Shown piece by piece: positions 18,945 through 60,672 of a stretch of DNA of 64,000 nt. A program made the position numbers and the translations under genes. Each line of letters begins with the position of its first letter. Within the stretch, counting starts at the first letter, position 1. The DNA comes from a virus. Lineage: Duplodnaviria > Heunggongvirae > Uroviricota > Caudoviricetes. The stretch is from IMG/VR virus record IMGVR_UViG_3300032038_000006; one strand, written 5' to 3'. Under the pieces are notes generated by a model. It did not search any database and had not been told where the DNA came from. It saw only the letters and a list, made by a program, of their open reading frames with translations.

Positions 18945-19031
18945 CGGCGTGTGGCGGAATTGGCAGACGCGCCAGCCTAAGGAGCTGGTGTCCTTCGGGA
19001 CGTGTGGGTTCGAGTCCCACCATGCCGACCA
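18945..19031 (+). tRNA. tRNA-Leu(AAG), type II
   Basis: Loop CTAAGGA; variable arm GTCC-TTCG-GGAC. Confidence 0.65.
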
Positions 19032-19187
19032 GAGAATACGTGCGACCACATATAGCGGTCTGTGGTGCCGCGGCACGTATTATCACCACTAAGACAGTCC
19101 AGCAATTCTTTAAAAGCATTTGAATTTTAATCAAAAGGTAGCTAACATAACTGTCTTGAATATTTGAATATAAAGGAGAGATTAACC

Positions 19188-19706
19188 GTGATTACCGAGA
19201 AGATATTTACTCGTGGTAATGGTGAGAAGGTTCGTTATTCACAGATAGGCTCTATTGTAGCCGACTACATCGCAAAGGCACCTAATGCCTCATACGAAAT
19301 AACTGTGGGTACAGATAGCCAGAACCACAAGTGCACAAGAATGGTGGAAGTAATTGCTGTTCACCGTATCGGTGATGGCGGCATTTTCTTCTATCGCAAG
19401 CAAGATATACCAAAGATAAGAGTTCTTAAGACTAAGATACAGGAAGAGACTTCTCGTTCTATTGAGAACGCAACAGGTTTCGTAGACGCTCTTGCTTATG
19501 CTCTTATCGACTATGATATTGACCTTGAGCAAATGTCTAATGACGGAAGATTTACTTTCGCTGTCCACGCTGACATTGGTCACGCAGGTAAGACAAATCA
19601 GCTTATTACTGAGATTACCTCTTGGATTAAGACTTGTGGCTTCGAGGTTGCTATCAAGCCAGATAGCTACGCTGCATCTGGTATCGCAAACAGAATTACA
19701 AAGTAA
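19188..19706 (+). CDS. hypothetical protein (GTG start) inside the tRNA array
   Basis: RBS GGAGAG. Confidence 0.45.
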   Translation: MITEKIFTRGNGEKVRYSQIGSIVADYIAKAPNASYEITVGTDSQNHKCTRMVEVIAVHRIGDGGIFFYRKQDIPKIRVLKTKIQEETSRSIENATGFVDALAYALIDYDIDLEQMSNDGRFTFAVHADIGHAGKTNQLITEITSWIKTCGFEVAIKPDSYAASGIANRITK

Positions 19707-19846
19707 CGAATATCGAGGGAAGGGCATAGTAAATTAAATACTGAGATAGTAGAAATACGTAGCGAAGGTGCTTAATTTACGCTGGTAAGGAAAGTAAGTA
19801 GTGGGTTGCCTATATTCGTTATCATAAATTTTCGGAGGGCGGCACA

Positions 19847-20077
19847 ATGGAAAGAGATAGAGCATACTATCGTTATCAGAGAAGACAACACATAGCTCGC
19901 AAGAGACATATCATTGATGAAACTCATCATTGGTTTTGTGATTGCGACGGAAAGTTAGCCAAAGGTAAAATTCATTGTTCCTGCTGGATGTGTGCCTTCA
20001 ATCATCCTAAGAGTGGCTGGAAGCAGGTTACATATTCCGATATGAAAAGAATTGAAAAGCTTGATTACTCTGAATAG
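19847..20077 (+). CDS. small Cys/His-rich (zinc-binding) protein
   Basis: RBS GGAGGG. Confidence 0.4.
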   Translation: MERDRAYYRYQRRQHIARKRHIIDETHHWFCDCDGKLAKGKIHCSCWMCAFNHPKSGWKQVTYSDMKRIEKLDYSE

Positions 20078-20181
20078 GAGTATCTGGCTGCTTAATAGGG
20101 ACTACACGTTGTTCTTGTAGTTTAAAAGAAGGAAAGAGTCGCTCTCTTGAAATCAAAGGATACGCCCAACCCTATTTCAAT

Positions 20182-20258
20182 GCCGACATAGCCCAATTGG
20201 TAGAGGCGATAGCCTTAGGAGCTATTCAGTTAGGGTTCGAATCCCTATGTCGGCACCA
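20182..20258 (+). tRNA. tRNA with anticodon TAG (reads CUA/CUG, Leu) in a type I body
   Basis: Stem ATAGC/GCTAT; loop CTTAGGA; A73. Confidence 0.55.
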
Positions 20259-20406
20259 TCGGGTTTCGGATATGGGTTAGGGCACGAGAGGTTTCGCGAA
20301 CCTTAAGGTCTTTACTCCGAAGAAAATACCTCGAAAGAGGAACTGCGAGTACTTGACTCCGATAAGCATACCCGAACCAATTAAAGACTCTTCAGCAATA
20401 TTCCTT

Positions 20407-20480
20407 TCCAGAATAGACAAAGTGGCTAAGTCATACGACCTAAAATCGTACATATGGGGGTTCGAGTCCCCCTTCCGGAC
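20407..20480 (+). tRNA. tRNA-like, anticodon TAA, no encoded CCA
   Basis: T-arm GGGGG-TTCGAGT-CCCCC; acceptor carries one mismatch. Confidence 0.35.
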
Positions 20481-20506
20481 CGCAAGGTATAGAGAGTCTT
20501 GATAAT

Positions 20507-20582
20507 CTCGGTTTAACTCAGCGGCGAGAGTGTCTCCCTTACAAGGAGAAAGTCATAGGTTCGAGTCCTATAACCGAGACCA
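20507..20582 (+). tRNA. tRNA-Val(TAC)
   Basis: Loop CTTACAA. Confidence 0.75.
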
Positions 20583-20689
20583 AGTAGGAATAGTTATGTT
20601 CAGTGCTATTGTCTACAGCTAACTCCACTGTGTGGAGGCAGATTTGGTTTTATTTAACCCTGCCGACTTGGGTTAAAGTCGGAATTGAT

Positions 20690-20765
20690 GTGGTGAGTAG
20701 CTTAATGGTAGAGCGCATGGTTGTGGCCCATGAAGGTGTGAGTTCGAATCTCATCTTTCCACCCA
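20690..20765 (+). tRNA. tRNA-His(GTG) with G-1
   Basis: Loop TTGTGGC; C73. Confidence 0.7.
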
Positions 20766-20865
20766 ATAGGTGATAGTCCTATAAGATGAATTACTTCCAT
20801 CTATGGTCGCCGTGGTCCAAATCGGTGAGGTAGGGTAATATGCCGAAACCGAGGTGACCAACTAT

Positions 20866-20942
20866 CGGGGCGTGACGTAACTGGTAAACGTGCGTGACTC
20901 AAAATCACGATTCTGTGGGTTCGAATCCCACCGCCCCGACCA
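20866..20942 (+). tRNA. tRNA with anticodon CAA (Leu UUG) in a type I body
   Basis: Stem CGTGA/TCACG; loop CTCAAAA; A73. Confidence 0.55.
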
Positions 20943-21075
20943 ATAAGGCAGTTCAGCAAAACACTTAAAACTTTTTCTTTTTTGCACAAAGGGGGATGTG
21001 GGTTCGAGTCCCACCGTGGCGTTCGCGTCGCGTAGCTCAATTGGTAGAGTTTATAAGTATAACTGTCTTGATAAT

Positions 21076-21151
21076 GCCGCGGTAGCTCAACTGGTAGAGC
21101 GCAAGCCTGAAGAGCTTGGCGTAGTAGGTTCGACTCCTGCCCGCGGCACCA
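21076..21151 (+). tRNA. tRNA-Phe(GAA)
   Basis: Loop CTGAAGA. Confidence 0.8.
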
Positions 21152-58674: not shown

Positions 58675-58916
58675 TGGAAAAGATAACTGAAGTTTACATC
58701 GTTCACTATGTGAACGCTTGGGAGATTGATGTCTGTGCCTCTCCTGAGGCGGCAGAACAGAAAGGTAGAAGTTACCTTCAGGAAATCGCCACTGAGTTCA
58801 CTAAGGAAGAGTTCGACCTCATAGTCGCTGAGTTTGAAAACTCTCTGAGAGAATATGAGGGCGCCTTCTCTGTTGAAGACGTAATGTGGGTTGAAATTCA
58901 GCCTCTTATCTACTAA
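58674..58916 (+). CDS. hypothetical protein
   Basis: ORF. Confidence 0.4.
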   Translation: MEKITEVYIVHYVNAWEIDVCASPEAAEQKGRSYLQEIATEFTKEEFDLIVAEFENSLREYEGAFSVEDVMWVEIQPLIY

Positions 58917-58935
58917 GAAAGAACAAAAGAAAAAT

Positions 58936-58964
58936 TTGACTTTTTTTATAAAATATGATATAAT
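58936..58964 (+). promoter_or_regulatory. sigma70-like promoter ahead of the 450-nt ORF-free region
   Basis: TTGACT n17 TATAAT. Confidence 0.65.
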
Positions 58965-59439
58965 ATTTATAGAAAAGGTTGAGGAAAGAAAATAAAAAGC
59001 GGTACACGGTTCGGTACGGTTTCTGAGTTCTCCGCTATATAAATGTGAAGTAATTGTAACCGATTGACATAGACCAGCCTTAGGTTGCTTGAGATACAGC
59101 AGGGGTAGGGCATCGCAGATGAGCGTGTGTGGTTGGGAAGAGACGAAATCCGCTGACCACTAAAGTTCTCCGACTGCAAGAGGTACGGCGGCAGAACTGA
59201 AAGGCGATTAATAAATTGACGGGGCAGCGGCTTTTAGGAGAATTTTCCTGCGTTTAGTGGAAAACAACCTTTCTACCTTTGGTTGACGGTGACTGGATAG
59301 TGGAACCGTTACCTCACTTTTAAATGGGGATTGGCAGAGGTCAGTATCTCGGGGAGTGTTTCAATGGAAATCTCCTGAGCCGCCGTTGAAAGAAACGGTC
59401 GAAGCGGGTTCCAACTCCCGTAGTCTCCACCAATTAAAT

Positions 59440-59516
59440 GTGGTTATGATGCAACTGGCAGACATCTTCGGCTAAGAACCGAAGTCTTGAGAGTTCGAAT
59501 CTCTCTAACCGCACCA
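59440..59516 (+). tRNA. tRNA with anticodon AAG in a type I body
   Basis: Stem CTTCGG/CCGAAG; loop CTAAGAA. Confidence 0.5.
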
Positions 59517-59518
59517 AT

Positions 59519-59593
59519 GTCTCAGTCGTTCAACGGATAGGACAGTGACCTCCTAAGTCGCTGATGTGGGTTCGATTCCCGCTTGGGACACCA
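59519..59593 (+). tRNA. tRNA-Arg(CCT)
   Basis: Loop CTCCTAA. Confidence 0.7.
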
Positions 59594-59602
59594 ATAAAAA
59601 AT

Positions 59603-59631
59603 TTGACATTTTTTATAAAATATGATATAAT
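59603..59631 (+). promoter_or_regulatory. sigma70-like promoter
   Basis: TTGACA n17 TATAAT. Confidence 0.65.
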
Positions 59632-59727
59632 ATATATAGAAAATGAGAGATAAGAAAAAAAACAAAAATCTCATTTCTATGCGGCTGAGCTGTTAGCAAA
59701 GAGGTTCGTCGCCAAACAGCTATTAAT

Positions 59728-59803
59728 CGGTGTGAAGCTCAATTGGCTGAGCAGCTGACTCTTAATCAGTAGGGTGTGGGTTCGAGTCCCATCACACCGA
59801 CCA
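59728..59803 (+). tRNA. tRNA-Lys(CTT) second copy
   Basis: Loop CTCTTAA. Confidence 0.7.
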
Positions 59804-60092
59804 ATCTTCTGGAGCGACAGGAAGTAAAAATCAGGTCGGCGGCTCTTCTTCGGGGTGCCTTAAAATACGAAGAAACGCAAACTCCGCTGGCGTTGTAAAA
59901 GGGGACACGCAGTTGTTATCTGCCTTCGCGGTATAGTTATCCGTAGGGAATGTTCTTCGCCCTGACTGACCTTCGAAAGGTAAGCGGTTGGCATACGAGA
60001 TGTGCCCGTTCATCCCCCACCGAGTGAGAACGTGAAACTAATAATGGGGTTGCTGAGCCGTCAGCAATGAGGTTGGTCGCCAACGGTATTAA

Positions 60093-60167
60093 TCGCCCCT
60101 TAGGCAAGTGGTTAAGCCGTCAGATTCTCAGTCTGAAGACGAGGGTTCGACTCCCTCAGGGGTGACC
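60093..60167 (+). tRNA. tRNA-Glu(CTC) second copy
   Basis: Loop TTCTCAG. Confidence 0.55.
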
Positions 60168-60519
60168 AGCAAGACTCCATAACAGCAAACCAGAGAGGAA
60201 ACTCATAGCAAGTCAGAGCCATAGCGGGGCGGCAGGAGAGCAAACGGTATTAGTTCCTGCTTGCTAAACTCTTAGCTGATGATACCGATGGAGCAGGTCT
60301 TATCCTTGGCACCTAAAGAGCAAAGGACGGAATGCGTCGCTCGAAACCGCGACCGCAACCGAGTGTTTGCGATTAAAGAACAGGTACCACTGGCAGAAGG
60401 GGCATCATAAGTCCTTTAATAAGGCGAAAGTAATTCCAGTGATGTCGGTGCCCTGTTCACACTCATTAATATTTTTAATTTATTCACAAAAAATTTACAG
60501 AATATTCACAAAAAAATAC

Positions 60520-60548
60520 TTGATTTTTTTCAAAAAATATGTTATAAT
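60520..60548 (+). promoter_or_regulatory. sigma70-like promoter (-35 TTGATT) preceded by two TTCACAAAAAA direct repeats
   Basis: TTGATT n17 TATAAT. Confidence 0.55.
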
Positions 60549-60580
60549 ATATATAGAAAAAAAATAAAAAAGAAATAAAT

Positions 60581-60672
60581 GTCGAGGTCACTCAGTGGGG
60601 AAGAGTAACAGTCCAGAAAACTGTCGCTCCTCGAAAGGGGAGCTGAGGGTTCGAATCCCTCTCTCGACGCCA
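60581..60672 (+). tRNA. tRNA-Ser(AGA), type II
   Basis: Loop CCAGAAA; long variable arm; A34. Confidence 0.6.

Follow-up and report, generated by a model that had tools for sequence, protein, structure and literature searches.

Why would a bacteriophage carry tRNA genes with adenosine at the first anticodon position in four different codon boxes? The question is raised by a 64-kb window of viral DNA (the whole stretch that was analysed; IMG/VR record IMGVR_UViG_3300032038_000006), which spans approximately positions 13,944-77,943 of the 180,954-bp metagenomic contig ENA ERZ27256903:k141_101128. An initial annotation had placed adenosine at wobble position 34 (A34) in five tRNA genes of the window, for Arg, Thr, Ser and twice for Leu. 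It had correctly pointed out that A34 beyond tRNA-Arg is rare in bacteria, such a set being known from few Firmicutes, and had taken the expanded set to imply broadened A-to-I editing. We find that the A34 genes are real and under selection, Ser-AGA being a weak member. The best explanation, which as a whole we regard as probable from the sequences, is that all five would be functional tRNAs within a near-complete complement of 46 tRNA genes and that A34 replaces G34 in their boxes, as inosine (I34) in the Arg and Leu tRNAs and as plain A34 in those for Thr and Ser.

The five A34 genes and their conservation

The window has a G+C content of ~40% and almost all of its genes lie on the plus strand. 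ARAGORN called 46 tRNA genes and one transfer-messenger RNA (tmRNA) gene, all on that strand, with three tRNA arrays at 15.7-21.4, 51.0-55.4 and 59.4-60.7 kb. The A34 genes called by ARAGORN, with their scores against the Rfam tRNA model and their anticodon loops, are as follows.

18945-19031, plus strand: tRNA-Leu(AAG), long, class II; 52.9 bits; loop CUAAGGA
51045-51119, plus strand: tRNA-Arg(ACG); 49.0 bits; loop CUACGAA
51122-51197, plus strand: tRNA-Thr(AGT); 66.9 bits; loop UUAGUAA
59440-59516, plus strand: tRNA-Leu(AAG), short, 77 nt; 43.0 bits; loop CUAAGAA
60581-60672, plus strand: tRNA-Ser(AGA), class II; 46.4 bits; loop CCAGAAA

All five exceeded the gathering score of the Rfam model (RF00005; 29 bits) with 43-67 bits, and re-annotation by ARAGORN and Rfam gave the same five anticodons at the coordinates first reported. 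In the covariance-model alignment, position 34 was assigned to A with high posterior probability both in Ser-AGA and in the short Leu-AAG. A shifted anticodon register, which the initial annotation had named as the point on which its observation might fail, was ruled out by this alignment; A34 is therefore no folding artefact.

U33 is near-universal in tRNAs and is present in four of the five genes, Ser-AGA having C33 instead. Thr-AGT starts 2 nt downstream of Arg-ACG. As identity elements, the sequence shows G1-C72, C2-G71, G35 and U36 for Thr-AGT, and G73 with a long arm for Ser-AGA. Both Leu-AAG genes have A73 and a Leu-like D-loop (AAYTGGCAGAC). The long one has a long variable arm and an encoded CCA; the short one has A37 and a 5-nt variable region, which gives it a class I shape in place of the class II long arm and is kept in all eight distinct members of its family. 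A long variable arm is the defining feature of bacterial tRNA-Leu, and five Leu-anticodon tRNAs in the window (TAA twice, TAG, CAA and AAG) measure only 75-77 nt and lack it:

18653-18729, 20182-20258, 20407-20481, 20866-20942 and 59440-59516, plus strand: short Leu-anticodon tRNAs

A73 and a CCA end encoded in the gene are retained in all four of 77 nt, and the 75-nt Leu-TAA (20407-20481) ends in CC; the latter is also the only one of the five without the Leu-like D-loop. A T4-like Citrobacter phage likewise has Leu tRNAs of 77-78 nt.

Loci of relatives are numbered with the prefix L. A 98% relative (IMG/VR 3300019845_000023) carries the long Leu-AAG at locus L009, the short one at L101 and Ser-AGA at L050. 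The long Leu-AAG has orthologs in L009 and L037 with an unchanged loop, their acceptor and variable-arm stems differing by compensatory changes. The family of the short Leu-AAG spans four backbones and 18 IMG/VR contigs, with an invariant loop and compensatory change at 15 of 20 stem pairs; in many phages with 54-120 kb of sequence the visible cluster consists of four tRNAs, namely short Leu-AAG, Arg-TCT, Leu-TAA and Gly-TCC. The adjacent Arg-ACG/Thr-AGT pair, with near-identical Arg copies, recurs in L037 and L039, each of which also has a Leu-AAG, and this despite an L037 endolysin only 49% identical to that of the window. The Thr-AGT anticodon arm was found on at least five phage backbones and two bacterial ones, with compensatory change at 10 of 23 stem pairs. 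Ser-AGA recurs only in the 98% relative, where its sole homolog is near-identical and retains C33. None of the A34 genes exceeds 75% identity to its window paralogs, which rules out recent duplication and point mutation from the U34 paralogs; Thr-AGT is 68% identical to Thr-TGT, and so no recent duplicate, and Ser-AGA is 70% identical to Ser-TGA.

These patterns bear on whether the genes might be copies that are redundant or in decay, having arisen through G-to-A or T-to-A changes in an AT-biased phage while host tRNAs do the decoding. tRNA content turns over fast in this phage group, relatives contain sporadic singleton Gly-ACC, Cys-ACA and Asp-ATC genes together with G33 or C33 tRNA-like genes, and the C33 and very narrow distribution of Ser-AGA would also suit drift. 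However, Leu-AAG and Thr-AGT keep A34 and the whole loop over four to five backbones while their stems co-vary, and the short Leu-AAG has its place in the four-tRNA clusters described above. In addition, bacteria keep a chromosomal Thr-AGT, and no G34 partner is left within the window. We consider neutral drift highly improbable as an account of the set; it is plausible for Ser-AGA only.

Several further ARAGORN calls in relatives ('Leu-AAG' in L009 at 8910-8985, and 'Phe-AAA' in L039 and L013) were set aside for G or C at position 33 and an odd loop. L009 8910-8985 and L039 6359-6433 are homologous tRNA-like genes with G33 and the loops TGAAGAA and CGAAAAA.

Decoding and predicted editing

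If the five genes are functional, what would they decode? For three of the four boxes, ARAGORN also called a partner with U34.

20182-20258, plus strand: tRNA-Leu(TAG), U34 partner of the CUN box
21284-21371, plus strand: tRNA-Ser(TGA), U34 partner of the UCN box
51409-51484, plus strand: tRNA-Thr(TGT), U34 partner of the ACN box

The corresponding G34 tRNAs (Leu-GAG, Thr-GGT, Ser-GGA and Arg-GCG) were absent from the window and the 9 kb downstream of it, and Leu-CAG was absent from the window. Within the window, G34 tRNAs serve Val, Gly and Ile, and Ala and Pro are served by U34 alone. Other phages, which share a ~60% identical PDDEXK homolog with the window, use Leu-GAG and Thr-GGT instead. 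Since A34 and G34 share no box in the window and these other phages carry the G34 versions, the two appear as alternatives, as they are known to be in bacteria. We propose that in the Arg CGN, Leu CUN, Thr ACN and Ser UCN boxes the phage A34 tRNA would take the place of G34 for pyrimidine-ending codons, and that the U34 tRNA would read purine-ending codons in the Leu, Thr and Ser boxes.

Codon usage was in line with such a division, as the initial annotation had suggested might be checked. The U-ending share of pyrimidine-ending codons was 0.76 in A34 boxes versus 0.62 and 0.60 in G34 boxes, so that U-ending codons are favoured about twofold in the boxes served by A34 (odds ratio ~2; box-level Mann-Whitney p = 0.002). 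Among Leu codons, the combined share of CUU and CUC was 61-69% in the window and in L009 versus 16-50% in the remaining phage loci counted, a shift of the kind described in bacteria with tRNA-Leu(IAG). This codon bias is insufficient proof by itself.

Whether A34 would be deaminated depends on the anticodon loop. The loop required by Escherichia coli TadA is YUACGAA, and Streptococcus pyogenes TadA, with its broadened range, accepts YUAMGRA. Placed in an Arg2-type loop, the anticodons ACG, AAG and AUG are the only ones edited by E. coli TadA, and substitutions at position 32, 37 or 38 of that loop block editing; tRNAs with AGA or AGU anticodons stay unedited and read U-ending over C-ending codons by at least 10:1. 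The loops of Arg-ACG (CUACGAA), long Leu-AAG (CUAAGGA) and short Leu-AAG (CUAAGAA) fit these motifs. Those of Thr-AGT (UUAGUAA) and Ser-AGA (CCAGAAA) do not, as both have G35 and lack G36 and Ser-AGA lacks U33 as well. Only position 35 separates the loop of the short Leu-AAG from that of Arg-ACG, so that the former may be acceptable even to a strict TadA of the E. coli type. Host TadA would thus generate I34 in Arg-ACG and both Leu-AAG tRNAs, allowing U-, C- and A-ending codons to be read, and I34 in Leu-AAG would fit the unusually high use of CUU and CUC. Lying outside the TadA motifs, Thr-AGU and Ser-AGA most likely function with unmodified A34, which would pair in Watson-Crick fashion with the abundant ACU and UCU codons.

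The inference of broadened editing in the initial annotation therefore holds for only part of the set: Arg and both Leu tRNAs have suitable loops, and the Thr and Ser tRNAs do not. A precedent for this split is Oenococcus oeni, whose A34 set likewise comprises Arg, Leu, Thr and Ser. According to PMC8072771 and PMC11066159, which summarise the original study (Rafels-Ybern et al. 2019), inosine occurs there in the Arg and Leu tRNAs only, the Thr and Ser ones being unedited.

Could all five nevertheless become I34, through a host or phage-encoded deaminase with a broadened specificity resembling that of ADAT? A34 is nearly always masked through deamination in cellular life, the codons ACC, UCC and CGC are in use (101, 57 and 52 occurrences) and need a decoder, and TadA specificity has broadened once already, to Leu, in Lactobacillales. 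Against this stand the Thr and Ser loops, which break both known bacterial TadA motifs, the observations on O. oeni and on AGA and AGU anticodons with E. coli TadA, and the Asp-AUC and Cys-ACA tRNAs of relatives, which would misread if they carried I34. A search for a deaminase gene inside the window or close to it was also negative. No HAE...PCxxC deaminase motif occurred in six frames of the window, no deaminase Pfam family was found among the genes called over record positions 7.6-87.3 kb (~80 kb, the contig span inspected for deaminases), and no deaminase gene was found in any fetched locus of the phage's clade, the 1.2 Mb of fetched loci yielding two unrelated dCMP-deaminase-like open reading frames (ORFs) only. 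As 56% of the contig lies beyond the inspected span, a phage gene could be located there. We judge I34 in all five tRNAs to be unlikely, and its specific form, in which an ADAT-like deaminase (host TadA or a phage enzyme encoded in the ~100 kb beyond the span) converts every one of them including the C33 Ser tRNA, to be very unlikely. If true, it would amount to eukaryote-style inosine decoding in a bacterial phage-host pair.

We accordingly prefer the replacement of G34 by A34, edited in Arg and Leu and plain in Thr and Ser. The sequences show directly that the genes exist, which register their anticodons have, that they are conserved, that G34 partners are missing from the window and that codon usage is biased; for modification states, aminoacylation and host, the proposal draws on what we infer from sequence. 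Several points weigh against it. G34 isoacceptors, a deaminase or tRNA-Trp could sit in the ~100 kb outside the inspected span. The strongest U bias is seen in the Ala and Pro boxes (0.84-0.86), yet these have no A34 tRNA. The U fraction of Val, a G34 box, equals that of Leu. The class I-shaped Leu-AAG might be aminoacylated by an enzyme other than LeuRS. Finally, Ser-AGA, with C33 and a distribution limited to two near-identical phages, may be weakly functional or non-functional.

Host, neighbouring genes and defence

The phage appears to be a ~181-kb uncultivated virus that infects a Firmicutes bacterium of the animal gut, probably one of the Clostridia. Among 50,697 deposited phage records, megablast detected nothing closely related, and a close cultured relative was discarded on the same grounds, the best protein matches reaching at most 38% identity. 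The nearest cultured phages are Bacillus siphophages of the Tsamsa/Thrax type, whose Ro-like protein is ~36% identical. The initial annotation had also read the A34 set as a clue to the host. It is a weak clue, because the complement differs among closely related phages, which makes it a poor host marker; the hints of Clostridia come from proteins. A GH113 gene (~124-1284) has its nearest named homologs in metagenome-assembled genomes (MAGs) of Oscillospiraceae (46-50% identity), and some homologs of a putative SleB-type (Hydrolase_2) endolysin (3646-4518) bear dockerin domains. Dockerin domains are typical of cellulosomal Clostridia. Together, the endolysin homologs and the GH113 gene hint at a cellulosomal, Ruminococcus-like host, and the sequences point weakly to Oscillospiraceae or Ruminococcus-like/cellulosomal Clostridia and not to Lactobacillales. 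The sample codes of the relatives look like those of rumen and pig-gut studies.

A genome-wide scan with the Thr-AGT arm identified a solitary chromosomal tRNA-Thr(AGT) in 12 of 14 matching contigs, the copy in a 13th being truncated at the contig edge. All 13 contigs with this tRNA (L054-L061 and L063-L067) are MAGs of uncultured gut Clostridia with 26-30% G+C. These come from human, rabbit and other animals, and use ACT over ACC at ~8:1. There appears to be a bacterial lineage with A34 for threonine outside Leuconostocaceae and Mollicutes. Its tRNA-Thr(AGT) is 96% identical to that of phage L040 and 71% identical to that of the window. Low-GC Clostridia of this lineage are thus unlikely as the host of the present phage, given the 71% identity and the G+C content of 26-30% versus 40%, and fit the low-GC phages L040 and L024.

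By its protein content the window is part of a large phage invested in RNA repair. The following genes belong to this group.

11775-12698: Pnkp-like kinase-HD protein
22162-23643: Ro/TROVE-like DUF2828-VWA protein
29695-30627: Rnl2-like ligase
41245-42375: Rnl1-like ligase
47800-48143, plus strand: tmRNA with tag ADYAIAA

This repair and rescue kit suggests that tRNAs or translation come under host attack during infection, and opens another explanation of the A34 genes. Anticodon nucleases or tRNA-depleting defences of the host might hit G34 isoacceptors, and phage A34 copies with altered loops would escape. The literature does propose that phage tRNAs dodge tRNases by anticodon-loop changes, and the odd loops seen here (C33, and A37 in a CUN reader) are consistent with it. 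On the other hand, no nuclease specific to Leu-GAG, Thr-GGU or Ser-GGA tRNAs emerged from the literature consulted or from the present analysis, the codon-usage fit can be explained without such evasion, and a free-living bacterium has the same four-box set with no such pressure proposed in the literature consulted. As the reason for the A34 set, defence evasion seems quite unlikely; it is compatible with the replacement of G34 by functional A34 tRNAs and does not exclude it.

Among neighbouring genes, an ORF at 25053-25562 encodes a DarG-like macro domain and may counter DarT-type defence, and a 136-aa ORF at 27956-28366 matches a segment of AlaRS only (model positions ~377-435). Endonuclease genes of the PDDEXK_5 (55861-56574) and GIY-YIG (14549-15199) types lie between tRNA arrays, and GIY-YIG also occurs in L068/L106. 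Hundreds of ~60% homologs of the PDDEXK_5 gene exist, in contexts unrelated to one another; the gene thus behaves like a mobile or homing element and was dropped as a synteny anchor.

The tRNA complement has other unusual members. It represents 19 amino acids, tRNA-Trp(CCA) being absent among the 46 genes of the window; Trp-CCA is present in other tRNA-rich phage contigs (L004, L007, L023, L024, L037 and L083). tRNA-Cys(GCA) at 51300-51390 has 91 nt and one tRNA-Asn(GTT) at 51992-52077 has 86 nt, both far over the usual size of their isotypes, and a 91-nt Cys tRNA is also found in L037 and L039. Two adjacent CTA-anticodon tRNAs (17015-17090 and 17094-17170), labelled 'Pyl' by ARAGORN, are amber suppressors. 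CTA tRNAs occur as well in the close relatives L009, L010, L011, L037 and L039 and in more distant phage loci, and L002 and L083 carry a TTA (ochre) suppressor tRNA. The CTA tRNAs suggest stop-codon recoding somewhere in the genome; stop-codon reassignment within the window was rejected, as there was no clear signal of TAG recoding.

Comparison with known systems

O. oeni, for which PMC8072771 and PMC11066159 describe Arg-ACG, Leu-AAG, Thr-AGU and Ser-AGA, is the sole organism reported with this exact four-member set in the literature consulted. The phage has the same set as judged from the window plus the 9 kb downstream, and the split expected for it, with ANG anticodons editable and AGN anticodons not, matches the one reported for O. 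oeni. In contrast to O. oeni, the carrier here is a phage and not a cell, its host probably belongs to the Clostridia and not the Lactobacillales, and it has two Leu-AAG genes (one class I-shaped with A37) and a Ser-AGA with C33. The tRNA-Leu(AAG) of Streptococcaceae and Lactobacillaceae, converted to IAG by a broadened TadA, offers a second parallel (PMC11472039, PMC13249217): the long Leu loop of the phage fits YUAMGRA and CUU and CUC are enriched in the phage too, whereas the short Leu-AAG sets the phage apart, with a loop (CUAAGAA) that a strict TadA may accept as well. A third is the unmodified tRNA-Thr(AGU) of Mycoplasma capricolum (Andachi et al. 1987, as cited in a later paper), which resembles the predicted phage tRNA-Thr in functioning with A34 and no inosine where the genome is AT-rich and codons tend to end in U. 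The tRNA set of Mycoplasma is a minimal one, however, while the phage Thr-AGT has Thr-UGU beside it and host tRNAs as well.

Cultured phages provided no match. The Bacillus phage Tsamsa/Thrax group resembles the window in that a DUF2828/Ro-like gene comes after a tRNA array, but the array of cultured phage Thrax1 has A34 in Arg-ACG only and UGU for Thr. No perfect match to the Thr-AGT arm was found in INPHARED, and none of the 38 tRNAs in three cultured phages has non-Arg A34. The tRNA-Thr of rV5-like coliphages, considered as a cultured Thr-AGT, is 84-85% identical but has the anticodon TGT. Non-Arg A34 is more frequent in the window than chance would give, with 4 of its 46 tRNAs as against 5 of 236 distinct tRNAs with U33 (~2%) in relatives fetched via protein anchors without regard to A34. 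Gly-ACC, Cys-ACA and Asp-AUC are among those of the relatives. The three were located at L007 12132-12204 (also in L008), L011 7437-7508 and L013 14193-14267, respectively, each in one phage type; a review and a preprint list the anticodons ACC, ACA and ATC (Gly, Cys, Asp) as missing from cellular life and phages.

Two recent papers conclude that ANN tRNAs of four-codon boxes, except Arg-ACG, are near-absent from bacteria and absent from phages, and take the absence from phages as evidence that such tRNAs are penalised universally; the phages behind this claim are cultured ones. Leu-AAG/IAG in Lactobacillales and unmodified Thr-AGU in Mollicutes were already known, as was the pattern itself from O. 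oeni. What is new is the carrier, as uncultivated gut or rumen phages hold ANN tRNAs. The short Leu-AAG loop, one base away from that of Arg-ACG, looks suited to ordinary TadA. Such phages are thus possible natural test beds for the use of unmodified A34 in decoding and for the expansion of the TadA substrate range.

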